A stretch of 64,000 nucleotides of DNA, taken from assembly GCA_015709655.1 (NCBI GenBank), contig CP054181.1, positions 2,708,207 to 2,772,206 on the forward strand. Direction: 5' to 3'. Within the stretch, counting starts at the first letter, position 1; the number at the start of each line of letters is the position of its first letter. Shown here piece after piece: positions 3,418 to 64,000 of the stretch. The position numbers and the translations under genes are program-made. This DNA comes from Ignavibacteria bacterium. Lineage in GTDB: Bacteria; Bacteroidota; Ignavibacteria; Kapaibacteriales; Kapaibacteriaceae. Below the pieces are notes generated by a model. That model was not told where the DNA came from. It searched no databases and saw nothing but the letters and a program-made list of their open reading frames with translations.

Positions 3418-4069
3418 TTGCACTTGCGCGTCGCTTAATATAAGCCGAAGGCCTGCCGGCATTAAACCGCCTTGGATTGGGGAGTACCGCTACAAGCAGT
3501 GCCGATTCCATTCGTGTTAACCGTGCCGCTGTTTTACCAAAGTAATGTTGTGCCGCCGCTTCAACACCATACACACCGTCGCCCCACTCCACAACATTAA
3601 GGTACATTTCCAGGATTCGACGCTTGCCCCATACTGCCTCGATACAGTACGTGATTCCAACCTCAAACGCCTTCCGTACCATCGTCCTGCTCGGTACCAA
3701 ATACACACTTCGTGCTGTTTGCATACTTATGGTACTGGCACCAAGGGGCGGACGTCCGCGCTTGACCCTTGAGGGGTTAACTCTCTTTGCACGGTCAACT
3801 GCACGCCAGTCCACGCCGCCATGAATCAGGAAGGCCCTGTCCTCACTGGCAATGACTCCGCGCTGTACCCACGTTGACATTTCATCAATCGATACCCAGT
3901 CGTAGTGAAGCCCTCCCGAGTATTTTGTGAACGGGGCTTCGGCCAGACGCCAAATCATGAGCGGCGTGTAACAGGGTGGAAACCATCGCAACAGAACAAT
4001 ACTTACAATGAATAAGCCGCTAACCGTGAGGATATTAAGCCATAAACCACGAAAAAGTTTTTTCCACAT
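3380..4069 (-). CDS. mtgA: monofunctional biosynthetic peptidoglycan transglycosylase (GT51)
   Basis: GT51 motifs IASEDRAFLIHGGVDWRAV and RGxSTISMQ; N-terminal TM; likely start is the ATG giving MWKKLFRGL (track start 4138 is a longer alternative); 3' end overlaps rluD convergently. Confidence 0.75.
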   Translation of the reverse strand: MWKKLFRGLWLNILTVSGLFIVSIVLLRWFPPCYTPLMIWRLAEAPFTKYSGGLHYDWVSIDEMSTWVQRGVIASEDRAFLIHGGVDWRAVDRAKRVNPSRVKRGRPPLGASTISMQTARSVYLVPSRTMVRKAFEVGITYCIEAVWGKRRILEMYLNVVEWGDGVYGVEAAAQHYFGKTAARLTRMESALLVAVLPNPRRFNAGRPSAYIKRRASAISKGMGGAALPR

Positions 4070-4608: not shown

Positions 4609-6738
4609 ATGCACACAAACGCAACCGATGTACCCCGGTCAGCAAAACTTGTTTCTGATACGTTAACGGAGGCCTTTGCCGATGATGTTTTAACAGCCGA
4701 CCAACTGCGTCAGCGCTTAAGCAGGAGTGTGTGGGAGTCAATTAGTAACACAATTGATAAAGCCACGGTGATCGATAGTGCAATAGCCGACACGGTGGCA
4801 CTGGCAATGAAAACATGGGCAATTGAAAAAGGGGCTACCCATTATTCACATTGGTTTCAGCCCCTTACAGGTCTTACAGCTGAAAAGCATGAATCGTTTG
4901 TTGTACCCACTTCAAACGGGTCGGCAATTTCGCAATTCAGCGGGAAGGAGCTGATTCAGGGAGAGCCCGATGCATCCAGTTTTCCAAGTGGTGGTCTGCG
5001 TGCTACCTTCGAGGCCAGGGGCTATACGGCATGGGATCCAACATCGCCCGCTTTTATTGTCCGTCATGACAACGGTGCCACATTGTATATCCCCACGGCA
5101 TTTGCAAGCTGGACGGGTGAGGCACTGGATCACAAAATTCCGCTGCTTCGGAGTACGAATGCACTCAATCATGCAGTTCTGAAAGCACTAAAATTATTTG
5201 GTGATTCTTCGGTTGAAAACGTAACAAGTGCCGTTGGTGCAGAGCAGGAGTATTTTCTGGTCGACGCTGAGTATGCCAAACGCCGACCTGACCTTGCACT
5301 AACCGGGCGGACGTTGTTTGGCGCACGCCCGCCACGTGGTCAGGAGTTAAGCGACCATTACTTTGGTTCGATACCAAACCGTGTACTGAGCTATATGACG
5401 GATGTGGAACAGCAGCTGTTCGCACTTGGCGTTCCGGTGAGAACCCGCCATAACGAAGTTGCACCCGGTCAGTATGAATTTGCCCCGCTGTACGAAGGTG
5501 CAAATATTGCAGCCGACCATCAGCAACTGGTGATGAAGGTGCTTAGGAATACGGCACGGAAACATGGCTTTGTTTGTCTGCTGCACGAAAAACCGTTTAG
5601 TGGAATTAACGGGAGCGGCAAGCACGTGAACTGGAGCATCATCACCAATACGGGAGTGAATCTTCTGGAGCCTGGCGATACTCCATTTGAGAATATGATG
5701 TTTCTGTTTTTCTGCACGGCAATTATCCGTGCCGTCAACCTCCACTCAGACTTGCTGCGTATTAGCGTTGCTACAGCATCGAACGATCTACGCATGGGGG
5801 CCCACGAAGCACCGCCAACAATTATGAGCATTTACCTTGGCGCAGAGCTGACCGACGTCTTTGAACGCATCGAGAGTGGTAAGGCCGGAAGTAAACGGGC
5901 TCGTGGGCTGCTGGGGTTAGGCTCACCGGTGCTGCCTCCGATACCGTTGCACAGTGGTGACCGTAACCGGACGTCACCATTTGCATTTACGGGTAACAAG
6001 TTTGAATTCAGAGCCGTGGGGTCGTCGCAGACCATCAGCTTTCCGGTAACGGTTCTAAACAGTATCGTTGCTGAATCAGTGATATATCAGTCAGCACAGA
6101 TCGAAGCTCTTCTGGCTTCGGGCGAACAGTTCGAAAACGCACTGCGCACTGTGATTAGTTCCACCTACTCCGAACATAAACGTATTTTGTTTGATGGCGA
6201 TGGTTATAATCCTCAGTGGATTACAACTGCTGCCGAGCGTGGTTTGCCCGTTTATGCATCATGCGTTGATGCCTATGAACAGTTAACCTCACAGAAGAAT
6301 ATTCAACTCTTTGAGCAGTTGCAGGTGTTTAATGCCCGTGAACTCGAAGCCCGACAAGAAGTGCTGTACGATCAGTATTTTAAGACTATCAACATCGAAG
6401 CAGAAACCACAGAGTGGATTGCCCGTACAATGATTGTCCCCGCAGTATTTGATTTTATCGCTCGTACCCAGTTGGTACAAACGCACAGCACGTTTGCGCA
6501 GGAAACGCACCACAAGCTGGTAGAGGCAATAGACAAGTTTGGGAGCGCTCTTGGAGAGCTGCACAGGCAAAATGTTGAGCTGGGTGGCAGCGATGTACGG
6601 AGCAAGTGCACGCACATGGTACAGAATGTGCTGCCTGCAATGAAGGCTGTCCGCCACGTAGCCGATAAACTTGAGCGCATCTGTGACTCTGCTGTATGGC
6701 CAATGCCGGGATACCGCGAAATGTGGCTGGTTCGGTAA
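4609..6738 (+). CDS. glutamine synthetase type III (GSIII, ~709 aa)
   Basis: Length and motifs (GSGKHVNWS, NEVAPGQYEF) typical of GSIII found in Bacteroidota; start ATG is 1 nt after lrp stop. Confidence 0.85.
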   Translation: MHTNATDVPRSAKLVSDTLTEAFADDVLTADQLRQRLSRSVWESISNTIDKATVIDSAIADTVALAMKTWAIEKGATHYSHWFQPLTGLTAEKHESFVVPTSNGSAISQFSGKELIQGEPDASSFPSGGLRATFEARGYTAWDPTSPAFIVRHDNGATLYIPTAFASWTGEALDHKIPLLRSTNALNHAVLKALKLFGDSSVENVTSAVGAEQEYFLVDAEYAKRRPDLALTGRTLFGARPPRGQELSDHYFGSIPNRVLSYMTDVEQQLFALGVPVRTRHNEVAPGQYEFAPLYEGANIAADHQQLVMKVLRNTARKHGFVCLLHEKPFSGINGSGKHVNWSIITNTGVNLLEPGDTPFENMMFLFFCTAIIRAVNLHSDLLRISVATASNDLRMGAHEAPPTIMSIYLGAELTDVFERIESGKAGSKRARGLLGLGSPVLPPIPLHSGDRNRTSPFAFTGNKFEFRAVGSSQTISFPVTVLNSIVAESVIYQSAQIEALLASGEQFENALRTVISSTYSEHKRILFDGDGYNPQWITTAAERGLPVYASCVDAYEQLTSQKNIQLFEQLQVFNARELEARQEVLYDQYFKTINIEAETTEWIARTMIVPAVFDFIARTQLVQTHSTFAQETHHKLVEAIDKFGSALGELHRQNVELGGSDVRSKCTHMVQNVLPAMKAVRHVADKLERICDSAVWPMPGYREMWLVR

Positions 6739-6819
6739 AGACGGTGCTCGTTTCTACGGTTCATTGTTCGGAGATCACTCCGTGTGATGATGGTGCAATT
6801 ATTGCTAGGTGCCAACGCA

Positions 6820-8898
6820 ATGGAAAAGCTCCTGGTCTGGATGTTTCTCGCATCGGTATCAACCGCACTGTGTGCCGTATCAATCAGCGGCCCGCGGGTG
6901 ATATGCGGTCAAACCGACATTGTACTGTCGGCACCCGCAGGGATGATCCGCTATTCGTGGAATACCGGTTCAACCGACAGACAGATCACTGTAACGTCGG
7001 CCGGGACCTATACCTGTACTGTAACTCTGCCAAATGGTAATATCGACACCGGCGTAGCCGTTGTTCGTCAGGCCTTTATTCCGCATCCTTCGATTGGTAA
7101 TCCGGTTGAATATCTGTGTGCAGGTGATCAGCTTCGGCTGGAAGCACCAACCACATTCGTGTCGTACCGCTGGAATACCGGGGATACCACAAGTTCCATC
7201 CGGGTGACTCAGGAGGGAAGGTTCCGTCTAACAGTTGTTGATACCAACGGATGCACGGGTACGTCAGACGAAATACTGGTGCTGGTTATTCCAAAACCTG
7301 TTGTCAGTATTCAGGGGCCAACGTCGGTGTGTAAAGATGGTACACTTGTTCACTATGTTTCCGGACAGTACAATACTTCGTATTCCTGGATGGCTGATGG
7401 TGGTGTGGTGGAAAGCGGGCAGGGTACACCGGCTGTTAAGGTACGGTGGAGCAGGTCGGGTTCTCTCACCGTCCGTGCCGTTACCACCCGCCCCGATGGT
7501 GGTGTTTGCACCAAGGATACCACGGTAAAGGTTAACGTCCTGGCATCGGTGAAGCCAACGATATCATATACGCGACGAGATATCTGTACCGGTGACTCCG
7601 TGCAACTGACGGCGGTTACCGGCGGTAACGTTGTCTGGAATACCGGTGACACAACCCAGACCATCACCGTGCGGAACGGAGGTTACTACTATGTAACGGT
7701 TACCGGAGTTGACGGATGCTCAGGGGTAAGCGATACTGTTGAAGTTATTGAGTTTCAGAAACCGCAGATCACGATTACTGGGCCCCGCATCCTGTGTCCA
7801 GGAAATTCCGCTGTCCTGACCGCATCCGATACGCGGGGAGAAGTTGTTCGCTGGGTGTGGAATACCGGGGAGCAGGGTAGCAGCATCCGGATCACTGCAC
7901 CCGGAACCTACTCGGTAACCGGAACAACGCTTGACGCATGTTCAGAAACCACGTCGATCACTCTTGGAGTGCAGCCTCCAATAGCGATGAGTGTTCCTGA
8001 TGTCAACGTTGGAGTTGTACCCACAGGACTGTATGTTCAGCCTGTAGTACAAGTCGCTAACAATGGCGTGAACGATGTTAGCGTTATTTCGGTTCAATCA
8101 TCATCGCCGGTTACCGTTAAACCGCAAACACCACGACTGGTGGGTGCCGGAACACGTCAGAACTTTACGGTTCAGTTCCTGCCTCTTGTTCCCGGTGCAT
8201 TTTCAATAACGCTCAGGTGGGTGCTGATGGACTCCGAGTGCCAGGATACGATAACTTCCAGGATCACGGGGATTGCCGTTGGTGACACCATCACAGGCGA
8301 GGTAAGTATATCCATCCCCGATACCACAGTACCGGTTGGCACTTTTCTGAACATCCCGATTCGGCTGCAGTCAACCCTGCACTTTAATGGTTCTACCACA
8401 GTCCGGTTTACGGTGCGTACTCCACGGAATGCACTGAATGTGCTTGGGTCAGGAGGGTGCAGTATCGAACGTGTAGCTCAGGAAGCTACAGACAATGTGT
8501 ACCACATTTTATTTGCAGGCTATCCATCGGGTCAGGCAGATACCACAGTGTACCTGAACGTTCAGACCATGCTACGAAGGCCGGAGCGTGCTCCGGTGAC
8601 AGCGGATAGTGTAACCCTTGAGAACGGCGTTGTTCCATTGGCAATGTATCACAACGGTTCGGTTGCGATAACCGGCTGCTGGATTGAAGGCAGACTGGTA
8701 ACGTTTCAGCAACTACATGCAACACTGGTGGTGTACCAGCTAAACGGACAGCAGGTGTACCGGCAAACTTATAACATCACACCTGAAGAAATCCGTGGCA
8801 TTGTAAACAAACTTGGAAGTTCAGGTACTCCGTTCCTTGCAGCAGTGTATTTGGCGGACGGAACGTATTACTGGAGCAGCTTTATTGTTGCACAGTAA
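6820..8898 (+). CDS. secreted protein with repeated Ig-like/PKD-like domains and probable C-terminal sorting (T9SS-like) domain
   Basis: Signal peptide MEKLLVWMFLASVSTALCAV (ATG 6820; track starts 6784); about 6 repeats of a ~80-aa module with conserved C...G..C (e.g. SIQGPTSVCKDG, TITGPRILCPGNS); aromatic-rich C-terminus ...GTYYWSSFIVAQ. Confidence 0.6.
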   Translation: MEKLLVWMFLASVSTALCAVSISGPRVICGQTDIVLSAPAGMIRYSWNTGSTDRQITVTSAGTYTCTVTLPNGNIDTGVAVVRQAFIPHPSIGNPVEYLCAGDQLRLEAPTTFVSYRWNTGDTTSSIRVTQEGRFRLTVVDTNGCTGTSDEILVLVIPKPVVSIQGPTSVCKDGTLVHYVSGQYNTSYSWMADGGVVESGQGTPAVKVRWSRSGSLTVRAVTTRPDGGVCTKDTTVKVNVLASVKPTISYTRRDICTGDSVQLTAVTGGNVVWNTGDTTQTITVRNGGYYYVTVTGVDGCSGVSDTVEVIEFQKPQITITGPRILCPGNSAVLTASDTRGEVVRWVWNTGEQGSSIRITAPGTYSVTGTTLDACSETTSITLGVQPPIAMSVPDVNVGVVPTGLYVQPVVQVANNGVNDVSVISVQSSSPVTVKPQTPRLVGAGTRQNFTVQFLPLVPGAFSITLRWVLMDSECQDTITSRITGIAVGDTITGEVSISIPDTTVPVGTFLNIPIRLQSTLHFNGSTTVRFTVRTPRNALNVLGSGGCSIERVAQEATDNVYHILFAGYPSGQADTTVYLNVQTMLRRPERAPVTADSVTLENGVVPLAMYHNGSVAITGCWIEGRLVTFQQLHATLVVYQLNGQQVYRQTYNITPEEIRGIVNKLGSSGTPFLAAVYLADGTYYWSSFIVAQ

Positions 8899-8923: not shown

Positions 8924-11317
8924 CTACTCAGACTTCTTTGTAACCGACTTTCTGGATGCAGGCTTTTTTGCGGCCGACTTCCTTGCAGCAGTCTTCTTTA
9001 CCGCACGTTCGGGTTTGGCTGGTGCCGATTCGGACTGTGATTCTGCCAGTGCCAAACACTCGGCAAGAGTAAGCGCTGCAGCATCAGTACCTTTTGGAAT
9101 TCGATAGTTGTCCTTACCAATTTTCAGAAACGGTCCCCAGCGTCCTTTTAGAATCTGCACATCAGGATTTTCATTAAATATTTTGATTAGACGTTCGGCA
9201 ACTGCTTTTTTCTTTGCCTCGATGAGTTCGATTGATCGTTCGATTGACACTGTTCCGGGATCTTCGCCTGATGGAATGGAGGCAAACATGCCGTTGTGTT
9301 CGATATACGGACCAAACCGTCCGATTTTCACGACTACGGGTTGTCCTTCGTAGTCACCAACAACGCGTGGAAAGCGGAACAACGCCAGAGCCTCTTCAAG
9401 AGTAACTGTTTCCATGCTCATTGCTGGAGCAAGGCCCTTTTGTTTTTTATCCGGATCATCAGAGTCGCCGATCTGTGCAATGGGTCCGTAGCGTGCCAGC
9501 CGGATTGTGACCGGTTTCCCGGTTTTGGGATCGGTACCCAGGTGACGTTCACCGCTCTGGCGTTCTGCCGTTGCCGACGTTTTGTCGAGAGTCTCTTTAA
9601 ACGGACCATAGAACGCCGAAATCATGGACTGCCACTGCAGCTTACCGTGAGCAATCTCGTCGAACTGCTTCTCTACGCTGGCGGTAAAATTATAGTCCAT
9701 AATTCCTTCAAAGTGAAGGAGAAGAAAATCAGTCACGATTGAGCCGATGCCGGTTGGAAAGAGTTTATTTCGTTCTTGCCCGGTATTCTCTGTTTTCACA
9801 ATACGCTGGATCTCGGAAGGGGCTATGGTCTCTGTATTAAGATTCAGCACTAATTCGCGAACCTCGCGTTGCTTGCCGTCGCGATCTTCTTTTACCACGT
9901 AATTCCGTGACTGTATCGTACCAATTGTTGGTGCATACGTGGATGGACGTCCGATACCAAGTTCTTCAAGTTTTTTAACAAGTGACGCCTCGGTGTATCG
10001 GGCTGGGGGGCGGGCGAACCGTTCCTGAGCCCGCACTGCCTGTGCATCCAGTTTCTCATCAACGGCAAGGGGTGGCAGCATCTTGGCATCTTCCTGGTCA
10101 TTCTCCTCGTCGGAACTTTCCATATACAAGTGCAGAAAACCATCAAATGCCAGCATTTCGCCCGTTGCCGTGAGTGTTTCCGGTGTTGTGCTGATACCAA
10201 TGGTTGCAACGGTTTTTTCCAAACGGGCATCTGCCATTTGTGAAGCAAGGGTACGCTTCCAGATCAGGTCGTACAGTTTTTTATGTGCTTCACTGGTTCC
10301 GGCACTTTTCTTTGACACATCGGTTGGCCGAATAGCTTCGTGAGCTTCCTGTGCGCTGGCCACGGTGGTGGTGTACCGGCGGGTTTGAACGTATTCGGCG
10401 CCAAAGGATGACCCAATGTACTCTGATGCGGCGCTAATGGCAACATCGGACAAATTCACTGAATCGGTTCGCATATAGGTAATGTGTCCGGCCTCGTACA
10501 AATCCTGAGCCAGCTTCATGGTACGTGCCAATGAATAGCCCAGTTTGCGTGAAGCTTCTTGTTGGAGTGTTGACGTGGTAAACGGCGCAGAGGGTGACTT
10601 CTTACCGGGTTTTATTTCCAGATTTTGCACATGGAACAAAGCCCCCTTACACTTCTCAAGGAAGGTACGGGCTTCGGTTTCGGTATCAAACCTTCGTGGA
10701 AGTTCGGCAGTAAATGACCTGCCGTTTTTCTGAAACTCGGCTTGAATTCTAAACTGAGAGGTTACCGTGAAGGCCTGAATTTCTCGTTCCCGTTCAACAA
10801 CCAGGCGGACGGCAACGCTTTGCACTCTGCCGGCCGAAAGGTTGCGCTGTACCTTGCGCCACAGCACCGGCGAAAGTCCAAAGCCAACCAGTCTGTCCAG
10901 AATTCTGCGTGCCTGTTGAGCATCAACCAGAGCTATGTCAACGCTACGGGGTTTTTCGACTGCCGCCTGAATTGCTTTCTTGGTGATCTCGTGGAACACA
11001 ATGCGCCGTACTTTTTGTGGTGGCAGTTCCAGCGCCTCCATCAGGTGCCATGCAATAGCCTCACCCTCGCGGTCTTCGTCAGTTGCCAGCCATATTGTTT
11101 CTGCCTTGGCGGCCTGCTTTTTCAGATCTGCGACGATTTTCTTTTTATCTGCCGTGACCTCGTATGTGGGAGTAAATCCATGTTCGATATCAATCGCCTT
11201 GTCGTTACCCGGCAGATCGCGGATATGTCCCATTGATGATGTGACAACAAAGTTGTCACCTAAGAACTTTTGAATTGTTTTGGCCTTACTCGGCGATTCT
11301 ACGATAACTAGATTCAT
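8924..11317 (-). CDS. topA: DNA topoisomerase I with C-terminal lysine-rich (histone-like) tail
   Basis: N-terminal MNLVIVESPSKAKTIQKFLG Toprim start, catalytic region, multiple C-terminal Zn-ribbon-like repeats, tail AKPERAVKKTAARKSAAKKPASRKSVTKKSE. Confidence 0.9.
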   Translation of the reverse strand: MNLVIVESPSKAKTIQKFLGDNFVVTSSMGHIRDLPGNDKAIDIEHGFTPTYEVTADKKKIVADLKKQAAKAETIWLATDEDREGEAIAWHLMEALELPPQKVRRIVFHEITKKAIQAAVEKPRSVDIALVDAQQARRILDRLVGFGLSPVLWRKVQRNLSAGRVQSVAVRLVVEREREIQAFTVTSQFRIQAEFQKNGRSFTAELPRRFDTETEARTFLEKCKGALFHVQNLEIKPGKKSPSAPFTTSTLQQEASRKLGYSLARTMKLAQDLYEAGHITYMRTDSVNLSDVAISAASEYIGSSFGAEYVQTRRYTTTVASAQEAHEAIRPTDVSKKSAGTSEAHKKLYDLIWKRTLASQMADARLEKTVATIGISTTPETLTATGEMLAFDGFLHLYMESSDEENDQEDAKMLPPLAVDEKLDAQAVRAQERFARPPARYTEASLVKKLEELGIGRPSTYAPTIGTIQSRNYVVKEDRDGKQREVRELVLNLNTETIAPSEIQRIVKTENTGQERNKLFPTGIGSIVTDFLLLHFEGIMDYNFTASVEKQFDEIAHGKLQWQSMISAFYGPFKETLDKTSATAERQSGERHLGTDPKTGKPVTIRLARYGPIAQIGDSDDPDKKQKGLAPAMSMETVTLEEALALFRFPRVVGDYEGQPVVVKIGRFGPYIEHNGMFASIPSGEDPGTVSIERSIELIEAKKKAVAERLIKIFNENPDVQILKGRWGPFLKIGKDNYRIPKGTDAAALTLAECLALAESQSESAPAKPERAVKKTAARKSAAKKPASRKSVTKKSE

Positions 11318-11844: not shown

Positions 11845-13737
11845 ATGCGTAAATGGCGGGCCGAGGATTCCTCGGAACTCTATAATGTTCACGGCTGGGG
11901 CGTGAGCTACTTTGGCGTGAACGAAGCCGGTAATGTTACTGTTCAGCCACGAAAGAATAAAGGACCGGAAATTGACCTGAAGCAGGTTATCGATGAGGTG
12001 GTGGCACGTGACGTGTCGCTCCCGGTTCTGCTTCGGTTTCCGGATATTTTGGATGACCGGATAGAGAAAATCGCGTTATGCTTTGATAAAGCCGGGGCAG
12101 ACTACGGGTATAATGGCCAGTATTATTCTGTGTACCCCATCAAGGTGAACCAGCAGCGTCCCGTGGTTGAAGAGCTGGTGCGGTACGGAGAGCGGGTTAA
12201 CATTGGTCTGGAAGCCGGCTCAAAGCCCGAGTTGCACGCCGTCCTTGCAATCATGGGAAACCCGGATGCACTGATTATTTGTAACGGGTACAAGGACGAA
12301 GATTATATTGAACTGGCGCTGCTGGCCCAGAAGATGGGAAAGCAGATTTATGTTGTTGTTGAGAAGCTCAACGAACTACGATTAATTAATACGATCAGTA
12401 AGCGGCTTGGTGTTCGGCCCAATATTGGCATTCGCATCAAACTTGCTGCATCGGGCAGCGGTAAATGGGAAGAAAGTGGTGGCGACAACAGCAAGTTCGG
12501 TTTGAACCCTGCCGAGCTTCTCGAAGCCGTGGATTATGCCCGTAACGAGAATCTTCTGGACTGTCTGCGGCTGATACACTTCCATCTGGGCTCGCAGATC
12601 ACCAATATCCGAAGAATCAAGAGCGGTTTGCGTGAGGTCAGCGAGTACTACGTGGAACTGATGAAGCAGGGCTGCAATATCGAATTTGTTGATATTGGAG
12701 GGGGCTTGGGCGTTGACTATGACGGCTCGAGAAGTTCCTATGCATCCAGCATTAACTACAGCATCCAGGAATACGCCAATGATGCTGTTGCAACAATTGT
12801 GGATGCTGCAACCAGGAACTCACTGCCACATCCAAACCTCATCACCGAAAGCGGCAGGGCACTCACTGCCCACCATTCAGTGCTTGTGTTCAACGTTCTT
12901 GAAACCGCTAAGGTCCCAGAGTGGGGAGAAACTGACACCGCCGATGATACCGATCACGAGCTGGTTCGTGAGATGCATGGTATTCTTCAGAATATCAGTC
13001 CACGGGCAATGTTCGAATCGTGGCACGATGCTCAGCAGGTACGCGAAGAAGCGTTGGACAGGTTCTCGCTCGGGCTGGTGGATCTTGCAGCACGCGCCAA
13101 GGTCGAAAAACTATACTGGTCAGTTGCACGGGCTGTGTACGACCTTTCGAAAGAGCTGAAAAACCCGCCGGAAGAACTCAAGCCCCTTCAAAGACTCCTG
13201 GCAGAAAAATATTTCTGCAACTTCAGTCTGTTCCAGTCTCTGCCTGATAGCTGGGCAATCGATCAACTGTTTCCAATCATGCCAATACACAGGCTGTGTG
13301 AAAAACCAACTCGGATGGCAACGCTGCAGGATATTACATGCGACAGTGACGGGAAGGTTGACAGGTTTATCGGGGGACGCGATTACCGGCAAACGTTGCC
13401 GCTACATCCGATGAACTCAGAGCCATACTACCTTGCCGTTTTCCTGGTTGGTGCATATCAGGAAATTCTTGGCGATCTGCACAATTTGTTTGGTGATACG
13501 AATGCTGTACATATTGTGATTAAGAACAACACCTACCATATTGAAAATATTATTGACGGGGAGACGGTGGCCGATGTACTGGACTATGTACAGTTCGATG
13601 CAAAACGGCTGGTGCGGACAATGGAAACCTGGGTTAATTCATCGGTACAGGACGGGAGGATAAGTAATCACGAAGGGAGAGAATTCCTCAATATTTATCG
13701 CTCCGGTCTTTATGGCTATACCTACCTTGAAGAGTAA
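11845..13737 (+). CDS. speA: biosynthetic arginine decarboxylase
   Basis: 630 aa; PLP-dependent Orn/Arg/DAP decarboxylase fold with SpeA-specific N-terminus MRKWRAEDSSELYNVHGWG... and C-terminal region. Confidence 0.9.
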   Translation: MRKWRAEDSSELYNVHGWGVSYFGVNEAGNVTVQPRKNKGPEIDLKQVIDEVVARDVSLPVLLRFPDILDDRIEKIALCFDKAGADYGYNGQYYSVYPIKVNQQRPVVEELVRYGERVNIGLEAGSKPELHAVLAIMGNPDALIICNGYKDEDYIELALLAQKMGKQIYVVVEKLNELRLINTISKRLGVRPNIGIRIKLAASGSGKWEESGGDNSKFGLNPAELLEAVDYARNENLLDCLRLIHFHLGSQITNIRRIKSGLREVSEYYVELMKQGCNIEFVDIGGGLGVDYDGSRSSYASSINYSIQEYANDAVATIVDAATRNSLPHPNLITESGRALTAHHSVLVFNVLETAKVPEWGETDTADDTDHELVREMHGILQNISPRAMFESWHDAQQVREEALDRFSLGLVDLAARAKVEKLYWSVARAVYDLSKELKNPPEELKPLQRLLAEKYFCNFSLFQSLPDSWAIDQLFPIMPIHRLCEKPTRMATLQDITCDSDGKVDRFIGGRDYRQTLPLHPMNSEPYYLAVFLVGAYQEILGDLHNLFGDTNAVHIVIKNNTYHIENIIDGETVADVLDYVQFDAKRLVRTMETWVNSSVQDGRISNHEGREFLNIYRSGLYGYTYLEE

Positions 13738-15868
13738 TTATCGTTACGAACCGGTCCTGTTAAAGAACATTGTTCGTACAATACTGATTGCAGCAGCCAT
13801 GACAGGTGCAATACCTGTCTGCGCCGCCGATATGCCTGTTGTGTATCGTGATGATTTTAGTACCGCGACACAGGTTTGGCCAGTCGGGAATTGGGGCGAC
13901 AGGATTGCAGGAATTTCTGATGGAATGTATCATCTGCGGAAGCTGAGCCCGGGAGGTCTGTGGTTTATTCCTGCCCCACAGATTTTTCTCGATATCAACG
14001 CCGATTACGACATTGAACTGCGTCTGCGCTTTAACTCGGGGCAGAAGGATAAGATCATCGGTATTGGCTACATGGCTGCTGATGTGAACTACGTGAATGT
14101 TGTTGGATATACGGCTGACGGCAGCCTGGGTGCTTTTCGAATAAGCTCCGGGAGATACGAAGATGTTGTTACTCCCGTACCATCAGCTTCAGTAAAGCAG
14201 AACAATGAGTGGAATACGATTACGGTTCGGCGGAGGGGATCGGCAATTGCAATCGTCATCAATGACGATATCACGACGTATACCGAAGAGCCACGATTAT
14301 TCGGACGTGCTTTCGGTATCGTGGTTACGGGAAGCATTGCTGTTGAAGCTGATTACATTGAAGTCAGACAAACACAGCAACCAATACGCCTTGCTGCCGA
14401 TTATCCAAAGGATGTGGTTCGCGAAAACCTTGGGCCGAATGTGAATACCTACAGCGGTGATCTTTCACCGGTCATCACCGCTGATGGACGACAACTGTAC
14501 ATCGGACGCTACCCTTATGAAGGGAATATCGGCCACCCGTCAACCGAAGATATCTACGTAAGTGACCTGCAACCCGACGGATTGTGGGGAAGGATGAGAA
14601 ATATCGGCCGCCCGCTCAATAACGAAGGGAGCAATTTCCTTATCTCGATTACACCCGATGGGAATACGGCACTGGTGGGGAATACGTACAGGCCTGACGG
14701 CCGCCCGCTTTCCGGAGGTGTTAGTATTTCGTACCGAACAGAAGGGGGATGGACGGTGCCAAGGGAAGTTATTATCCGAAATTACTATAACAGAAACAGA
14801 TTCGCTGAGTATTCACTCTCACCAAGCGGGCAGCAACTGATCATGGCAATTCAGCGTGATGACTCGAAGGGTGATAAGGATATGTATGTGTCGCACCTAT
14901 TGTCGGACGGCACGTTTTCGGCTCCCCAGCATATCCAAACGCTCAGCACCTGGGGCAACGAAATGAGTCCGTTTGTTGCTGCCGACGGCGTAACGATGTA
15001 CTATGCTACTGACGGTCTTAAAGGCTACGGTTCGATGGATATCTGGGTCACACGCCGGTTGGACGATACATGGCTGAACTGGACGGAACCCGAAAACATG
15101 GGACCAAGCGTAAACAGTGATAAGTGGGATGGTTACTTCACCGTTCCTGCAAAAGGTGATTATGCTTATCTAAGTGCAGCCAACAACACCGATGGCAGCG
15201 CCGACATCTATCGTATCCGGTTAACCAAGGGAGTGCGTCCACAACCTGTTTTCCTGGTGCGCGGTCATGTACTGGATGCCGTCACCAGGAAGCCGATTGC
15301 CGCCCGTGTTGCATACGAAAGCCTTACACACCGCATGGCTGTTGGAACAGCACGTTCTGCCTTGCCGGAGGGAAGTTACAGTATTGCCCTTCCGTCGGGC
15401 GATCTGTACGGCTTCAGGGCTGAAGCCGAGGGATACTATCCGGTTAGTGACCAGCTAGATGCCCGTAAGCTTGAAGAGTATACCGAACTTGAGCGTGATC
15501 TGCTCCTGGTTCCGCTCAGAGTTAACGAGACAATAAAGTTATCCAATATCTTTTTTGATTTTGGCAAGAGCACTTTGCGAGATGAATCACTACCCGAACT
15601 TGAACGACTCCTTGCATTGCTGCGCTCGCGCCCCTCGCTTGTGATTGAACTGCAGGGACATACCGATAACGTTGGATCGGATGACGCAAACAAGGCGTTG
15701 TCGAAAGATCGCGTGGAAGCCGTCAGAACGTATCTGGTCAATAACGGAATTGATGAAAAGCGCCTGATGGCTGTTGGCTACGGTAAATCTAAGCCGGTGG
15801 CCTCCAACGATACCGAGGAGGGCCGGCAGCAAAACCGTCGCGTTGAATTTAAAATCGTGAAGATGTGA
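13712..15868 (+). CDS. outer-membrane protein: TolB-like WD40/PD40 beta-propeller repeats + C-terminal OmpA peptidoglycan-binding domain
   Basis: Signal peptide; several PD40-like repeats (SPDG/TPDG..Y motifs); C-terminal NIFFDFGKSTL...ELQGHTDNVGSDDANKALSKDRVEAVRTYL...NRRVEFKIV is canonical OmpA_C; start overlaps speA by 26 nt. Confidence 0.75.
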   Translation: MAIPTLKSNYRYEPVLLKNIVRTILIAAAMTGAIPVCAADMPVVYRDDFSTATQVWPVGNWGDRIAGISDGMYHLRKLSPGGLWFIPAPQIFLDINADYDIELRLRFNSGQKDKIIGIGYMAADVNYVNVVGYTADGSLGAFRISSGRYEDVVTPVPSASVKQNNEWNTITVRRRGSAIAIVINDDITTYTEEPRLFGRAFGIVVTGSIAVEADYIEVRQTQQPIRLAADYPKDVVRENLGPNVNTYSGDLSPVITADGRQLYIGRYPYEGNIGHPSTEDIYVSDLQPDGLWGRMRNIGRPLNNEGSNFLISITPDGNTALVGNTYRPDGRPLSGGVSISYRTEGGWTVPREVIIRNYYNRNRFAEYSLSPSGQQLIMAIQRDDSKGDKDMYVSHLLSDGTFSAPQHIQTLSTWGNEMSPFVAADGVTMYYATDGLKGYGSMDIWVTRRLDDTWLNWTEPENMGPSVNSDKWDGYFTVPAKGDYAYLSAANNTDGSADIYRIRLTKGVRPQPVFLVRGHVLDAVTRKPIAARVAYESLTHRMAVGTARSALPEGSYSIALPSGDLYGFRAEAEGYYPVSDQLDARKLEEYTELERDLLLVPLRVNETIKLSNIFFDFGKSTLRDESLPELERLLALLRSRPSLVIELQGHTDNVGSDDANKALSKDRVEAVRTYLVNNGIDEKRLMAVGYGKSKPVASNDTEEGRQQNRRVEFKIVKM

Positions 15869-54076: not shown

Positions 54077-54091
54077 TGATTGTGGAAAGTG

Positions 54092-54181
54092 CGGAGGAGG
54101 AGGGATTCGAACCCTCGATAGAGCTTAACACCCTATGACGGTTTAGCAAACCGTTGCCTTCAGCCACTCGGCCACCCCTCC
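54092..54181 (-). tRNA. tRNA-Ser (anticodon GCU), 90 nt with long variable arm
   Basis: Hand-folded: acceptor GGAGGGG/CTCCTCC (one G-U), D-arm GGCCGAGTGGCTGAAGGC, anticodon stem ACGGT/ACCGT with loop TTGCTAA, T-arm GAGGG-TTCGAAT-CCCTC, discriminator G; CCA not encoded. Confidence 0.85.
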
Positions 54182-58751: not shown

Positions 58752-59782
58752 GGGGCTAAACCAATGATTCGGCAGTTTGTCGTAAACGGAATAGCAACAT
58801 CATAAAGTTTTTTTTCGGCAAACTCATCGAAAATCGTCAGTCGTGGCTCATCATGGTGAGTGCACATCAGCAGGGCGCGAGCTGCATCATACGAGCACAT
58901 GGTGTATGACTCGAACTGAACTGCGGCGGCACGTCGGGGTGTTCGGGTTTGAATCTGGAGCAGACCATTTTGAACAGGAACGTAGCAGTAGCCGCTACTG
59001 TTAACGGAAAGGCTGGAGGCAATTTGTAACGGGCCCTCAGAATCACGGGACGTAAGTGCAACGGTTGCCGTAATGGTCCGGGTACTCACATTGATCGTAG
59101 AGAGTGAAGGTACGGTAGGATCTTCGCCCTGAGATGCAGGCGTTTTTCCCTTGCCGAGTGAAACAACGCAGAACACGTTGTTCAACGGATCGCCCTCTAC
59201 CAAAGACGGAACGTCTGACGGAATATCCAGCCGTGCTTCGACCGTATTGGTCCGACTGTCGATAATGGCTACCTTGTTCTGATGTGGCAGTGCAACGCAA
59301 ATCTGATTCCCCAGGGCGGCAATACCTGCAGTTGAATCTCCAACAGAGATTGTACGTACGATCTGGAATACCGTAAGGTCAATAACGCCAACTGCCATGC
59401 TATCGGGTAATGAAACGTAGGCTGTTGTTGCATTGGCAAAGGCAATGTCGGCCGCATGGCCATACCCCGACAGACTGATCTCGGCTACGGCAGTAAGTGT
59501 CTCTCGGTTTAGGACGGTAATGCTTTCGGATTTTGTTAGCACGTAAATATCGTTGCGATACTGCCGAAGCTGCTGTACAGGGTATGCACCCAGGTCGGTG
59601 GTTGGCTTCCAGGTCTGATTCAGAACAGTCTGGTCAGGCATCGAGATCGTATAAAGCCCCGTAGGACCACTCAGCAGCAGACGCCATTTGCCATTAAACG
59701 AATTTATTAACGGCTCTTCAGGAGAACATGAAGAAAGTAGCAGCACACTGGTCAGGACCAATGCTGAAATCAGTCGGCTCAT
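58748..59782 (-). CDS. lipoprotein with beta-propeller-like repeats (YVTN-like)
   Basis: Signal peptide with lipobox LLSSC; repeated ~40-aa segments. Confidence 0.45.
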   Translation of the reverse strand: MSRLISALVLTSVLLLSSCSPEEPLINSFNGKWRLLLSGPTGLYTISMPDQTVLNQTWKPTTDLGAYPVQQLRQYRNDIYVLTKSESITVLNRETLTAVAEISLSGYGHAADIAFANATTAYVSLPDSMAVGVIDLTVFQIVRTISVGDSTAGIAALGNQICVALPHQNKVAIIDSRTNTVEARLDIPSDVPSLVEGDPLNNVFCVVSLGKGKTPASQGEDPTVPSLSTINVSTRTITATVALTSRDSEGPLQIASSLSVNSSGYCYVPVQNGLLQIQTRTPRRAAAVQFESYTMCSYDAARALLMCTHHDEPRLTIFDEFAEKKLYDVAIPFTTNCRIIGLAP

Positions 59783-60618
59783 TATTCACTCCTATCAGCA
59801 TGTTGAACAACATAGCGGATAATATCGGCAACAACAGGCTCTGCAATTGTAACTGCCTGAAGCATTTCTTCCAGCAACACCGGTTGTAACGAATCCGGAA
59901 AGCATTCATCGGTGATGATGCTTATGCCAAGCACCTTCATCCCCAGGTGGCGGGCAGCAATCACCTCGGGGACTGTACTCATCCCCACCACATCGGCACC
60001 AATTGTGCGCAGGAATCGGTACTCTGCCCTGGTTTCCAGGTTGGGTCCGCAGACTGCAACAAATACACCGCGGTGCACCCGATGCCTACCTTCCAGAGCC
60101 CCCTTTTCAGCAATTGTTAGCAAATGCTGCGAGTACGGCTCGCTCATATCCGGGAAGCGTGGACCAAACCGTTCATCGTTCGGGCCAACCAGCGGGCTTG
60201 TACCCAGCAGGTTAATATGATCGTCAATAAGCATAACATCGCCCCGGCGATATAAAGGGTTCATTCCGCCGCAGGCATTGCACACGATCAGTGTTTTTAC
60301 ACCCAACGCCCACATTACCCGAATAGGGTAGGCAATCTGCTGGAGTGAATACCCCTCATACATGTGAAACCGGCCCTGCATCACGCACACCGGTACACCA
60401 TCGAGCATACCGCTCACCAGACGTCCGGCATGCGACTCAACAGTACTCTCAGGGAAGAGTGGAATATCCTGATATGGTGTGCTGACGGGGTTGCTGATAT
60501 GCTCAACAAAGCCCCCCTGACCGGTCCCCAGAATAATACCAACGGTGGGTTGGATGCCAATTGTGTCCTTTACCAGACCGGCAGCCTTGATAACATCATC
60601 ATACGTGTGGTGATTCAT
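59782..60618 (-). CDS. punA: purine nucleoside phosphorylase (PNP-I family, punA-like)
   Basis: GRFHMYEGY, VGMSTVPE, NACGGMNP motifs identical in register to trimeric PNP; ATG (MNHHTY) at 60618 preferred over TTG at 60639. Confidence 0.8.
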   Translation of the reverse strand: MNHHTYDDVIKAAGLVKDTIGIQPTVGIILGTGQGGFVEHISNPVSTPYQDIPLFPESTVESHAGRLVSGMLDGVPVCVMQGRFHMYEGYSLQQIAYPIRVMWALGVKTLIVCNACGGMNPLYRRGDVMLIDDHINLLGTSPLVGPNDERFGPRFPDMSEPYSQHLLTIAEKGALEGRHRVHRGVFVAVCGPNLETRAEYRFLRTIGADVVGMSTVPEVIAARHLGMKVLGISIITDECFPDSLQPVLLEEMLQAVTIAEPVVADIIRYVVQHADRSE

Positions 60619-60794
60619 GGTGCGAAGATAGGGAAGCAATGGATGTCTTTGAGCGGCTCAGGACCCTGTACATATCGTCGGAATATTGAATTCAGTGATT
60701 CATGGATTAGGATGACACGTTCGGAGAGCTCAGGTAGCGAACCTAAGGGGCATATGGTCACGTTGTACTATCGTTCATGTACTATCTACAAAAG

Positions 60795-62188
60795 CAATTG
60801 CTCCAGAGTTTTGTCATGATCATTACGTAGGCTGCACACCGCAGCCGACTGGCCGAGCTATAGTGGTAGGTGGTGATGCACGATGGTGGTGGAGGTGGGG
60901 GTGGGGCCCGGAGGGCCGTAGTCCGTCTGTTTGGGATTTATGACGTGCCTCGGTAGTGCATAAGGTTTGTGTTAAACCGTAATGTGGGTATGAAACCCCG
61001 TAGGAACGAACCCACGTGGTGGCCCGCACGAAACACCATATAAAACCCGATACGAAACTGTACGAACGTGGTCACACTTCACTGTCATTGACACACTCTC
61101 TATCACAGCAATTGCTCCGGAATTCCTAATGTGTTTTACGTAGGCTGCGCAACGCAGCCGACCGGCCGAGCTGTGCAGGTAGGTGGTAACGCACGATGGT
61201 GGTGGAGGCGGGGGTGGGGCCCGGAGGGCCGTAGTCCGTCCGTTCGGGATTTATGCCGTGCCTCGGTAGTGCAGAACGGTTGTGTTAAACCGTAATGTGG
61301 GTATGAAACCCCGTATGAACGACCCCATGTCGTCGCCCACACGAAACATTATAAAACCCGATACGAAACTGTACGAACGTGGTCACACTTCACTGTCATT
61401 GACACACTCTCTATCACAGCAATTGCTCCGGAATTCCTAAGGTGTTTTACGTAGGCTGCACACCGCAGCCGACCGGCCGAGCTGTACTGGTAGGTGGTAA
61501 CGCACGATGGTGGTGGAGGTGGGGGTGGGGCCCGGAGGGCCGTAGTCCGTCCGTTCGGGATTTATGACGTGCCTCGGTAGTGCATAAGGTTTGTGTTATA
61601 CCGTAATGTGGGGATGAAACACCGTAGGAACGACCCCATGTCGTCGCCCACACGAAACATTATAAAACCCGATACGAAACTGTACGAACGTGGTCACACT
61701 TCACTGTCATTGACACACTCTCTATCACAGCAATTGCTCCGGAATTCCTAATGTGTTTTACGTAGGCTGCGCAACGCAGCCGACCGGCCGAGCTGTGCAG
61801 GTAGGTGGTAACGCACGATGGTGGTGGAGGCGGGGGTGGGACCCGGGGGGCCGTAGTCCGTCCGTTCGGGATTTATGCCGTGCCTCGGTAGTGCAGAACG
61901 GTTGTGTTAAACCGTAATGTGGGTATGAAACCCCGTATGAACGACCCCATGTCGTCGCCCACACGAAACATTATAAAACCCGATACGAAACTGTACGAAC
62001 GTGGTCACACTTCACTGTCATTGACACACTCTCTATCACAGCAATTGCTCCGGAATTCCTAAGGTGTTTTACGTAGGCTGCACACCGCAGCCGACCGGCC
62101 GAGCTGTACTGGTAGGTGGTAACGCACGATGGTGGTGGAGGTGGGGGTGGGGCCCGGAGGGCCGTAGTCCGTCCGTTCGGGATTTATG
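60795..62188. repeat. tandem array of a 311-bp unit, 4.5 copies, copies alternating between two sequence subtypes (A-B-A-B-A)
   Basis: Unit starts (caattgctcc...) at 60795, 61109, 61420, 61731, 62042; period 311 (first 314); subtype-specific substitutions recur in alternate copies (loop ACACC vs GCAAC in a conserved GGCTGC..GCAGCC hairpin; atgacgtg/ataaggtttg vs atgccgtg/agaacggttg); each copy has G-run ggtggtggaggtgggggtgggg and several 5-7 bp hairpins; fifth copy truncated at ~62188. Confidence 0.9.
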
Positions 62189-62379
62189 CCGTGGCTCAGT
62201 CATACAGCATGTTTGCCGTGGCTCAGTGATACAGCATGTTTGCCGTGGCTCAGTGATACAGCATGGTTGCCGTGGCTCAGTGATACAGCATGTTTGCCGT
62301 GGCTCAGTGATACAGCATGTTTGCCGTGGCTCAGTCATACAGCATGTTTGCCGTGGCTCGGTCGTACAGCATGTTTGCC
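62189..62379. repeat. 27-bp minisatellite (7 copies; unit ccgtggctcagtgatacagcatgtttg) contiguous with the truncated fifth 311-bp unit
   Basis: Head-to-tail copies with no spacers; unit is ~70% identical to the 27-nt segment ccgtgcctcggtagtgcagaacggttg of the 311-bp unit at the equivalent position. Confidence 0.9.
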
Positions 62380-62671
62380 GGACTAGGGAGCTGTAAATAA
62401 TATTAAAACAACAGTGATATCATAAGGCCCTACTGTGTGGCAACCCCGCGTGGCTGCTCTGCATTAAACAGCATAAAAAGGACTAAACCGTAAGGGTGCG
62501 GAACAAGGTGCGGGTTTCAAACCCGTCCCGAGGTAATATTCAATTGAGTCGAAACTGTGGAGAGTGTATTCCATGAGCTCGATCCTTTGAAAGTAAAACA
62601 CAAACCGGTTACACGACGGTAAGCCCTTTATTTAGCCGGTTCATCATCCCCCATACCACACCCCTCTTTCT

Positions 62672-62679
62672 TATTTTTG
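62672..62679 (+). promoter_or_regulatory. candidate -7 box TAttTTTG 13 nt upstream of the TPR-like gene ATG
   Basis: TAnnTTTG match. Confidence 0.3.
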
Positions 62680-62692
62680 CAATGCAGCTACC

Positions 62693-64000
62693 ATGGGGAA
62701 ATCTTATATACGAAATCTGTGTGGCAGAATGTTTGCATTCTGCTGTTTCCTGATATACTTCCTGCCGTGTTATGCACAGCAGGGGAGATACCCGTACCTT
62801 CCGTTGGAGACTGTGGAGCAGGTTGCGGACGTTTGGCAGTCAGACGGGCTGTTGCGCAGGTCTGCCGATGTACTGGATGAATTTCGAGACTCAGAGGTCC
62901 GCTCGGGAAGTGACGCCCTACGAATGAGTCGTGCCGAGCTCGAACGTGCTTCAGGCTTGCCAAAGAGTTCGGACCGGAGTCTGATGGTGTTCCTGCAGGG
63001 GCGCAGCAACTCGCCCTTCTTCCCCATTGCAATGTCGGCACGTGGCTTTCTGGCGCTGTCGGAGGCCCGATATAGTCAGGCTGACAGCTTGCTCCATACT
63101 GCTGCATTGCGTGCGCAGCACGATTACGTTGTCCGCCGTGATACCCAATACCGTACTCTTGCACAACATGCCTACTTCTGGGATGGTGTGGCTCTGGGCA
63201 GGATGCAGAAGTTTGACAGTGCAATCGTGCGGTTTGCGGCTTGTATAGCCACCGATTCGTTGGGGAGCCTGGCTCCTCGTGCGCTGTTTGCCATGGGCCA
63301 AATGTATGAGCGGCTGGCTGTGACAAACAAAGCTTCCGAAGCCTACTCAACAATTCGGAAAAAGTACAGGACTGGAAATATTATCGTGGCAGCCCGGATC
63401 AGGGAGGCACAGATTGCGTTGCGGCAACGGATGCCTGAGCGTGCCGTTGACATCCTTGGCGGGATTGATGCAGAGATCCTGAGTCTTTCCGCTGGAGACA
63501 GTTTGTTGCCGTTTCCGATATCGGAGGCTGTCGGACAAGTTCGAATCCTGCGTACAAATGCACTGATCATGCGCGGAGGTTTTGCCGAAGCCCTGGATTC
63601 TGCTACTGCATATTTACGGGAATCGCCTCCCGACAGAAACGTACCGCTGGTTAGACTTCAAAGTGCGTTCTGTATGCTGAATCTTGACTCGTCGGACGAC
63701 GCATTACTGCATCTTGATAAAATTATTGATCAGGTAACCGACGATGCCTCGCCCATACGTCAGCAGGCATTGCTCTACCGCGCCTTGGCCCTGCGTCAGA
63801 GTGGTATGCCCGAAAAAGCAGTTGCTGACTTTACCTACCTTGCGGCCCTGGCCGGATATCCGTATCAGGCTCAGGCTCTGGTGGAGGTTGGCCAAGCAGC
63901 CTATCAGCGTGGCGACATGGAGGCTACGATTAGGGCCGTTGACCGTGCTGAGAAATTAAGTACCGATGCGCAGACAACGATCCGCTCACAGTTGCTGCTG
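62693..64000 (+). CDS. secreted TPR/alpha-helical repeat-like protein, N-terminal part (>435 aa; runs off window end; absent from supplied ORF track)
   Basis: Manual translation from ATG 62693 is stop-free to nt 64000; N-terminal signal peptide MGKSYIRNLCGRMFAFCCFLIYFLPCYAQQ; alanine/leucine-rich helical repeats (...AAYQRGDMEATIRAVDRAEKL...) suggest TPR-like fold; the overlapping 221-aa minus-strand track ORF (62688..63353) is likely spurious. Confidence 0.55.
   Translation, partial: MGKSYIRNLCGRMFAFCCFLIYFLPCYAQQGRYPYLPLETVEQVADVWQSDGLLRRSADVLDEFRDSEVRSGSDALRMSRAELERASGLPKSSDRSLMVFLQGRSNSPFFPIAMSARGFLALSEARYSQADSLLHTAALRAQHDYVVRRDTQYRTLAQHAYFWDGVALGRMQKFDSAIVRFAACIATDSLGSLAPRALFAMGQMYERLAVTNKASEAYSTIRKKYRTGNIIVAARIREAQIALRQRMPERAVDILGGIDAEILSLSAGDSLLPFPISEAVGQVRILRTNALIMRGGFAEALDSATAYLRESPPDRNVPLVRLQSAFCMLNLDSSDDALLHLDKIIDQVTDDASPIRQQALLYRALALRQSGMPEKAVADFTYLAALAGYPYQAQALVEVGQAAYQRGDMEATIRAVDRAEKLSTDAQTTIRSQLLL

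Follow-up and report, generated by a model that had tools for sequence, protein, structure and literature searches.

A 311-bp tandem array in a Kapaibacteriaceae chromosome as a probable local amplification of a modular intergenic repeat

The chromosome of an Ignavibacteria bacterium (GenBank assembly GCA_015709655.1, contig CP054181.1) has a gap of 2054 bp between a PNP-family gene (PNP_UDP_1; 59782-60639, minus strand) and a TPR/YfiO-like gene (plus strand, start at 62693). Most of this gap consists of head-to-tail copies of a 311-bp unit. Positions are those of the 64,000-nucleotide stretch that was analysed, termed here the window (2,708,207 to 2,772,206 of the contig). With a probability of about 0.6, the unit belongs to a lineage-specific family of non-coding, modular mosaic intergenic repeats, similar in kind to the bacterial interspersed mosaic element (BIME) and the BOX element, which was amplified in place. 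It works like a mosaic repeat of the BIME or repetitive extragenic palindrome (REP) type, but it is not a demonstrated member of the REPs that are mobilised by a REP-associated tyrosine transposase (RAYT). It is likewise neither a separate gene for a structured RNA nor a set of iterons or the remnant of a replicon.

Tandem Repeats Finder places the array at 60823-62197 with a period of 311, 4.4 copies, 93% matches and a score of 2445, which is far beyond chance; the copy number has a single assembly as its basis. The palindrome GCAATTGC was used as unit anchor and is found at 60794, 61108, 61419, 61730 and 62041 (spacings 314, 311, 311 and 311), and the final phase of the cores was set by the nhmmer profile of the family. 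Five cores are present, all on the plus strand. Copy 1 (60756-61066) has a full core and a REP-like tail, matches the profile at 60756-61006 and measures 314 bp through indels. Copy 2 (61067-61377) and copy 4 (61689-61999, placed by alignment) represent one form, B, and copy 3 (61378-61688) and copy 5 (62000 to about 62190) the other, A. Copy 5 is truncated; the profile matches it at 62002-62215, and its 3' part merges into a secondary plus-strand array of 7.2 copies of the 27-bp unit TGCCGTGGCTCAGTGATACAGCATGTT (62187-62380, also from Tandem Repeats Finder). A first-pass annotation, made from the letters alone, had noticed a 311-bp tandem array filling the divergent gap, and Tandem Repeats Finder and the five cores bear this out. 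The gap is indeed mostly repeat, but the complete first core begins about 40 bp earlier than had been given, at 60756, and the adjoining 27-bp array had been overlooked.

How did the two forms arise? Fourteen sites alternate between copies 2 and 4 on the one side and copies 3 and 5 on the other. The strict alternation described earlier holds at these sites, but it covers only two periods, and copy 1 stands apart as the most diverged copy, with 83-86% identity to the others. Copies one dimer apart are 99.4% identical (2 and 4) or 100% identical (3 and 5, over 189 nt), whereas the A and B forms differ more (95.5% between copies 2 and 3), so that a single recent unequal exchange of a 622-bp dimer would suffice. 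The dimer duplication proposed in the first-pass annotation therefore agrees with the identities. Selection to keep two forms, which had been proposed along with it, is unnecessary, as one recent duplication event would by these identities account for the alternation. The 27-bp unit TGCCGTGGCTCAGTGATACAGCATGTT is a diverged version of the core segment TGCCGTGCCTCGGTAGTGCAGAACGGTT, and the alignment to the family profile continues through the first 27-bp repeat beyond copy 5; the small array is derived from the last 311-bp unit. The tail of copy 1, CCCGTAGGAACGAACCCACGTGGTGGCCCGCACGAAACACCATATAAAAC, is close to REP-like modules in three related stretches (L084, L086 and L089; L numbers denote stretches of related contigs). 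The copy structure as a whole, with its distinct copy 1, its A/B differences and its truncated copy 5 followed by a derived array, is non-trivial and internally consistent.

Is the unit confined to this locus? The relatives sampled comprise about 110 kb of metagenome contigs, probably from one or two genomes. In such contigs a 26-nt pattern of hairpin 1, TACGTAGGCTGCRCAMCGCAGCCGAC, is found in 12 stretches of 10 contigs from three data sets, and BLAST together with the nhmmer profile extends this to about 21 copies of 75-91% identity, solo or clustered. Pairwise identity among the copies ranges from 63 to 97%, with a mean of 78%. Solo copies are found in L082, L083, L085, L089, L091 and L092, loose clusters in L084, L087/L093 and L090, and tight tandem dimers in L086 (345-952) and L088 (98-558). 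The unit junction ...GAAACTGTACGAACGTG|GTCACAC... is common to the L086 and L088 dimers and the window array. The first-pass annotation had asked whether the unit might be part of a known repeat or mobile element: it does belong to a dispersed repeat family, but one that is uncatalogued. The suggestion that the array is satellite-like is a fair description.

The genes next to the copies are unrelated to one another. They are TPR/YfiO-like, sulfatase, amidohydrolase, YceI, acyl-CoA-synthetase-like and IgGFc-binding-like, and two more resemble ribosomal protein S4 and a DnaJ-like protein by inspection of the open reading frames (ORFs), with no Pfam search. The next gene can lie downstream or upstream of a copy or be convergent with it, as in L084, L090 and L093. 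With such unrelated neighbours, a tie to one particular downstream gene family is ruled out. The profile found no copy in 80 loci of other genera. An exact 22-mer from the invariant 3' part had 0 matches in a genome collection that held no close relative, and exact look-ups and a homology search for repeat copies by way of spurious ORFs were empty. Protein relatives of the PNP-family gene product are at most 65-72% identical over the aligned segment, so the species and its close relatives are absent from the genome collection; the top ones come from Candidatus Kapaibacterium and metagenome-assembled genomes of Ignavibacteria, and none has the repeat.

The unit consists of a core of about 250 bp and one GTAG-tagged, REP-like palindrome module of about 60 bp. 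All its elements are given here on the plus strand with the coordinates of copy 2. A bipartite box is present in each unit at 61071-61099 and is made up of GTCACA (61071-61076), a variable spacer of 17 nt and CACTCT (61094-61099). It is followed by the palindrome GCAATTGC (61108-61115), which is near-invariant in both subfamilies of the repeat (the second is described below), and by two palindromes restricted to the window-type subfamily, GGAATTCC (61119-61126) and TACGTA (61137-61142); the latter overlaps the GTAG tag of hairpin 1. With its 5' tag, hairpin 1 reads GTAG-GGCTGC[RCAMC]GCAGCC (61139-61159), an inverted repeat with a GC stem of 6-7 bp, of which GGCTGCGCAACGCAGCC at 61143-61159 is the hairpin proper. 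The G-tract GATGGTGGTGGAGGCGGGGGTGGGG (61195-61219) starts 90-94 nt past GCAATTGC in 39/39 units from the two subfamilies and includes the words GATGGTGG, GGTGGAGG and CTGGTGG, which may be likened to the enterobacterial Chi sequence GCTGGTGG. When the quadruplex option is on, a two-tetrad G-quadruplex is predicted at this tract in the minimum-free-energy fold. Hairpin 2, GGCCCGGAGGGCC (GGCCC-GGA-GGGCC; 61218-61230), comes after the G-tract and is followed by hairpin 3 (61276-61293).

The unit ends with the tail module CCGTATGAACGACCCCATGTCGTCGCCCACACGAAACATTATAAAACCCGATACGAAA (61311-61368), a degenerate GTAG-tagged palindrome with an A-rich linker after it, and belongs to the palindrome family CCGTAGGGGCGACCCCRCGTGGTCGCCC...CACGAAACATCATAAAAAACGATAA. 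In the related contigs a core is typically followed by a variable number of these short modules, and the window unit has exactly one, the degenerate one. The module family CCGTAGGGGCGACC-CCRCGT-GGTCGCCC folds at -23.1 kcal/mol in the L085 copy, and the window tails at -5.8 to -7.1. The exact REP-like consensus has 10 copies in four related loci and none in the 64-kb window at up to 3 mismatches.

REPs and BIMEs are extragenic, multi-copy, GC-rich imperfect palindromes with a 5' GTAG tag that form mosaic clusters (PMC2817692, PMC3733652), and they are frequent targets of insertion sequences (IS) (PMC1525189). Part of one survey lists CGTC-type repeats for Chlorobi and Bacteroidetes (PMC3733652). 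The similarities to the window family are several. GTAG-tagged GC palindromes make up both the tail module and hairpin 1; in the related contigs the repeats are extragenic and multi-copy, with a variable number of modules, and the ends of IS3-family elements abut them. There are also clear differences. The window-family core is about 250 bp as against the 20-40 nt of a REP, the modules are arranged head-to-tail and in one orientation per cluster (e.g. L087 13650-14105, period 113), and there are arrays with a period of 267-311 bp and a higher-order alternation. No RAYT was identified, although a systematic search was not made and the ORFs that were checked beside the repeats are unrelated; and the host is from the Bacteroidota/Chlorobiota/Ignavibacteriota group, not the Proteobacteria.

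BOX elements of Streptococcus pneumoniae are modular (boxA-boxB(n)-boxC), 100-300 bp long and dispersed, have terminal inverted similarity and are thought to resemble miniature inverted repeat transposable elements (MITEs). Like BOX, the window family is a modular, non-coding intergenic repeat with a variable tandem module and no fixed relation to genes, but there is no sequence relation, BOX is not known to form multi-kilobase arrays of the whole element, and the window family has no terminal inverted repeat, in which it also differs from MITEs. Another comparison concerns process only. Primate alpha satellite is organised in higher-order repeats, and as in such satellites adjacent monomers of the window array are diverged (95.5%; 83-86% with copy 1) and copies one multimer apart are 99.4-100% identical. 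By this analogy, a higher-order pattern with the most diverged copy at the edge would be the signature of unequal crossing-over of a multimer. Unlike alpha satellite, the window array is bacterial, has 4.5 monomers and has no centromeric role.

The array is also not the only one of its type. Weak profile matches (E 7e-11 to 1e-3) led to two arrays of a sister subfamily, one in L087 (10393-12497; period 277, 7.7 copies) and one in L086 (2014-3793; period 267, 6.5 copies). Sister units are about 49% identical to the window type and keep the GTCAC box, a YAC..T box 16-17 nt on, GCAATTGC, a GC hairpin (GGTCGGC-CCA-GCCGACC), the tract GGTGGTGGTGGCGGGGGAGGG and a later GC hairpin; GGAATTCC and TACGTA are missing, and a hypervariable segment of about 11 nt is located between conserved blocks. 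Two unrelated 3' halves take turns along these arrays, so that the higher-order period is about 545 bp. Long alternating arrays therefore recur in the repeat superfamily and are not peculiar to this locus, and the earlier remark that such arrays are rare does not apply to this lineage, as comparable ones recur in related contigs. The L086 array is followed by a 32-bp array of 6.8 copies (3808-4024) and then a gene, a layout as in the window. The sister array of L087 adjoins a tRNA gene (10150-10224), and a 5S rRNA gene is found at the end of L086 (9444-9560).

Of particular interest is L085, the start of a 574-kb JGI metagenome contig, as it carries an ortholog of the TPR gene and its DNA is 95.7% identical to the window from 62439 onward. 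The contig starts inside an IS, so only sequence to the right of the IS end is visible. Between that end and the TPR gene there is one visible core with REP-like modules on both sides, and no 27-bp array. The draft assembly GCA_045863115.1 (BTVM01000031.1), whose identity to the window is 99.97%, breaks off within copy 1. Its match to the window stops at 60969, and from there on 52 nt of the contig belong to the end of the IS seen in L085; the window has no IS at this point. The IS encodes HTH_Tnp_1 (orfA) and rve (orfB) and hence belongs to the IS3 family. It abuts cores in L085 (about 270-330), L088 (about 559-1829 and 1-97) and L091 (below 5231), and at the junctions seen it is the orfA-proximal end, or its twin inverted repeat, that faces the repeat. 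These repeat-rich sites seem to tolerate insertions, and array size and IS content of the locus thus differ among close relatives. Degenerate REP-like palindromes, GGCAACCCCGCGTGGCTGC and CCGTAAGGGTGCGG...GCGGGTTTCAAACCCGTC, are shared by window 62439-62560 and L085 820-940, just upstream of the TPR gene.

A course of events can be proposed from these comparisons. A solo core would at first have stood upstream of the TPR gene together with a REP-like tail, much as in L085. It would have been duplicated, and unequal homologous recombination or replication slippage between adjacent copies could then have amplified it in place. The copies would have diverged or been partly converted, which would give copy 1 and the A and B forms. 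The last step in the main array would be a single duplication of a 622-bp B-A dimer to yield B, A, B and the truncated A, and further slippage inside the last unit may have produced the 27-bp array of seven copies. From one locus to another the family may travel either by transposition in trans or by recombination. The array may be tolerated in the long divergent intergenic region as repetitive mosaic DNA, and any cellular effect might be exerted by the hairpins and the G-rich tract on local DNA or on read-through transcripts.

Do the units represent RNA genes? A structured RNA had been put forward on the grounds that substitutions between the A and B forms preserve stems, and the idea was not upheld. 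A search of Rfam 15 at the gathering threshold gives nothing in the array, and at E values up to 10 there is only microRNA noise (E >=1.2). There is likewise no relevant Rfam match in the whole window or in the arrays of L085, L086 and L087, and a scan of the window for tRNA and tmRNA finds only a tRNA-Ser (54091-54181). Folds were tested against shuffled single sequences on both strands, and with RNAalifold, the structure conservation index (SCI) and column-shuffle z scores. Unit folding is not stabilised relative to shuffles (z = +0.45 for the plus and -0.31 for the minus strand). Covariation contributes -0.8 kcal/mol to the RNAalifold consensus of 22 window-type copies and -1.1 to that of 32 copies spanning both subfamilies, whose joint consensus energy is only -6.8 kcal/mol; the SCI amounts to 0.45 among window-type copies and to 0.10-0.14 when the subfamilies are combined. 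The sole column-shuffle z below -3 (-3.2, minus strand) is owed to the palindromic hairpin 1, and altogether nothing but palindromic hairpins withstands the tests on alignments.

The variants in the hairpins themselves do not have the pattern claimed for them. In hairpin 1 the two variable bases are both in the loop, and the forms keep an identical 6-bp stem (-11.5 and -12.7 kcal/mol); GCAAC, ACACC, ACAAC and GCACC all occur in the family, and with all four combinations present there is no covariation. In hairpin 3 the changes are confined to the 5' arm and weaken the stem: it has -7.9 kcal/mol in the B form and -3.8 in copy 1, and copy 3, at -1.6, no longer forms the hairpin. Tandem small RNA (sRNA) genes and Rfam families do have features in common with the array, i.e. 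they are non-coding, have local GC hairpins and exist as paralogous copies that are sometimes in tandem, but the window array has no Rfam match, promoter, terminator or conserved fold. A structured non-coding RNA was thus rejected on Rfam, fold z, covariation, SCI and the scans for promoters and terminators.

Two other candidates were also discarded. The view that the array is non-coding was confirmed: a period of 311 (3x103+2) cannot be divided into whole codons, and the frame would be shifted by the indels of 1, 2 and 4 nt that family members have in their most conserved segment. ORFs in the array are 41-110 amino acids (aa) long and bounded by single units; the 68-aa minus-strand ORFs reported earlier exist, and the protein collection contains no homologue of the 68-aa ORF. 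An iteron array or the remnant of a replicative element, both suggested in the first-pass annotation, find no support. BLAST against plasmids and phages and scans of viral contigs give no match to the array, there is no rep or par gene nearby (the neighbours are the PNP-family gene and the TPR protein), and cumulative GC skew is monotonic with no switch. An iteron, replication-origin or partition array is rejected on the 311-bp size of the unit, as against the roughly 17-43 bp of iteron-type repeats, together with this skew, the lack of a rep/par context and the lack of similarity to replicons.

Several observations weigh against a simple mosaic repeat amplified in place. Neither BLAST nor nhmmer finds a further copy elsewhere in the 64-kb window. 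Marks of mobility are lacking: the units have neither terminal inverted repeats nor a clear target duplication, and no cognate transposase was found. Conservation is uneven: across 22 copies with a mean column identity of 74%, blocks such as GCAATTGC, GTAGGCTGC, GGTAGGTGGTGA and GGGGG vary little or not at all. Although identity between the two subfamilies is only about 49%, they have the same blocks at the same spacing, including the constant distance from GCAATTGC to the G-tract. On sequence grounds these shared blocks point to a sequence-specific reader. Core orientation, taken as that of the G-rich strand, agrees in sign with the GC skew of the flanks (5-60 kb) in about 11/13 cases, the exceptions being the L086 sister array and the L087b,c/L093 cluster, and purely neutral junk would not predict such an orientation. 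The match may, however, merely reflect local gene orientation. The functional alternatives combined, i.e. a promoter-like module, a protein-read signal or a recombination/replication signal, have roughly one third of the probability.

Could each unit be a transcription unit? It might be a small non-coding RNA gene or an outward promoter with GTCAC and YAC..T as -35 and -10 and a start near GCAATTGC, in which case an array would represent a multi-copy set of sRNA genes or a stack of promoters that feeds the downstream gene. This is unlikely, but it has points in its favour. The GTCAC and YAC..T boxes are conserved in both subfamilies at a fixed spacing of 16-17 nt with a spacer of varying sequence; any function of the box is putative. 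The long arrays of the window, L086 and L087 point to a co-oriented gene 300-500 nt downstream, the bias of orientation with GC skew fits, and by inspection several variants of the sister hairpin 1 pair by G-T wobble on the plus strand only. Against this, no unit passes a sigma-70 promoter scan, neither strand has a terminator within the units, and the Rfam, stability and consensus-fold results given above are negative. The TTGACA and TATAAT that had been listed as conserved elements are present, the first on the plus strand (61088-61093), inside the 17-nt spacer of the bipartite box, and the second on the minus strand (61348-61353), in the A-rich linker of the tail module; both are particular to the window variant and not conserved in other family members. 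The sequence TAnnTTTG, the Bacteroidota-type -7 promoter box, occurs 23 times in the window, about half of these in the small intergenic fraction, and one occurrence (62672-62679) is 21 nt before the TPR start codon, which suggests that the organism uses this promoter type with very short leaders. It is missing from every unit on both strands, in spite of its enrichment in intergenic DNA. Copies in L084, L090 and L093 are moreover convergent with the next gene.

The conserved blocks might instead be signals at the DNA level, namely GCAATTGC and the GTCAC box as sites for a DNA-binding protein or recombinase, or the G-tract as a G-quadruplex or Chi-like signal, with arrays as by-products of recombination stimulated by a polar element. 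Primary-sequence blocks at fixed spacing without a shared fold would be natural for such signals, as would the perfect palindromes, the predicted two-tetrad quadruplex, the skew-related orientation and the tandem and higher-order amplification at three loci. The proposal is rather doubtful, though. Neither a protein that binds the blocks nor a recombination system was identified, the second subfamily lacks GGAATTCC and TACGTA, the skew of the long flanks may mirror local gene orientation, and the sample is small, with few contigs from probably one or two genomes.

The broader proposition, that the family is a polar genome element with a function in a little-known lineage near Kapabacteria/Ignavibacteria, is a minority possibility, improbable but not negligible. 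It draws on the fixed-spacing blocks across the two distant subfamilies, the lack of a shared RNA fold, the skew-matched cores and the recurrent alternating arrays. If true, the element would be a new class of protein-read or transcription-coupled signal, for example a promoter-driven G-rich transcript or a quadruplex that stimulates local recombination, or an element of polar punctuation in replication or transcription. If it turned out that a protein or a polymerase reads the blocks, the family would provide a tractable example of a bacterial repeat that generates higher-order tandem arrays.

Non-autonomous mobile elements are a further candidate, either REP- or REPIN-like units moved by a RAYT-type Y1 transposase, or MITEs, with tandem copies from multimeric or circular intermediates. 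The GTAG-tagged palindromes of the tail module and hairpin 1, a hallmark of REPs (PMC3733652, PMC2817692), are consistent with this, as are the dispersal across unrelated contexts and the identical unit junction in the L086 and L088 dimers and the window. Nevertheless it is very unlikely. There are no terminal inverted repeats; besides the internal hairpin only arms of 15-16 nt with 73-75% complementarity are found. The ends are ill defined: on the left homology sets in with the GTCAC box, though in L089 not before GCAATTGC, on the right the element blends into REP-like modules, and no direct repeat that would indicate target duplication is evident. Modules are in direct and not alternating orientation, copy identities of 63-97% with a mean of 78% speak against a recent burst, no Y1 transposase was seen (a systematic search was not made), and the 64-kb window has no exact copy of the REP-like consensus. 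Least probable of all is an artefact of assembly in the array or in its number of copies: the independent draft does break inside copy 1, and copies 2/4 and 3/5 are too alike for short reads to resolve, but the array is internally consistent from copy 1 through the A/B differences to copy 5 and its 27-bp repeats, and same-junction dimers and longer sister arrays were assembled independently in other data sets.

The in-place amplification of a mosaic repeat, which is the reading preferred here, has implications of its own. It adds an uncatalogued repeat family with GTAG-tagged palindromes from a sparsely sampled Bacteroidota/Chlorobiota/Ignavibacteriota lineage, and it accounts for the breaks that draft assemblies of these organisms have at such sites. 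Loci that differ in array size and IS insertion between near-identical strains might be of use in strain typing. It is also a cautionary case, as an array that stands out in a single window turns ordinary once relatives reveal a dispersed repeat and one duplication.

Other repeats and genes of these stretches deserve mention. The N-terminal 436 aa of the TPR/YfiO-like protein (62693-64000) have no homologue at E <=1e-30 in a protein collection of 5.8 billion clusters; with an ortholog at hand whose DNA is 95.7% identical, this points to a gap in the protein collection for the lineage. The lineage appears to be unusually rich in intergenic tandem repeats. Further intergenic arrays are located in L086 at 6511-7199 (118/236 bp, 5.9 copies, with CTCCCC...GGGGAGGGGG hairpin modules) and in L087 at 1-462 (228 bp, 2 copies) and 13650-14105 (113 bp, 4.1 copies of REP-like modules). 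At the other end of the window, 628-896, there is a 30-nt tandem repeat, AAGAAGCCAGTAGCCAAGAAGGCTGCTGCT, with a 90-nt higher-order period, which in one frame would encode a Lys/Ala/Pro-rich tract; the protein would probably be histone-like or basic, with this tract as its tail.

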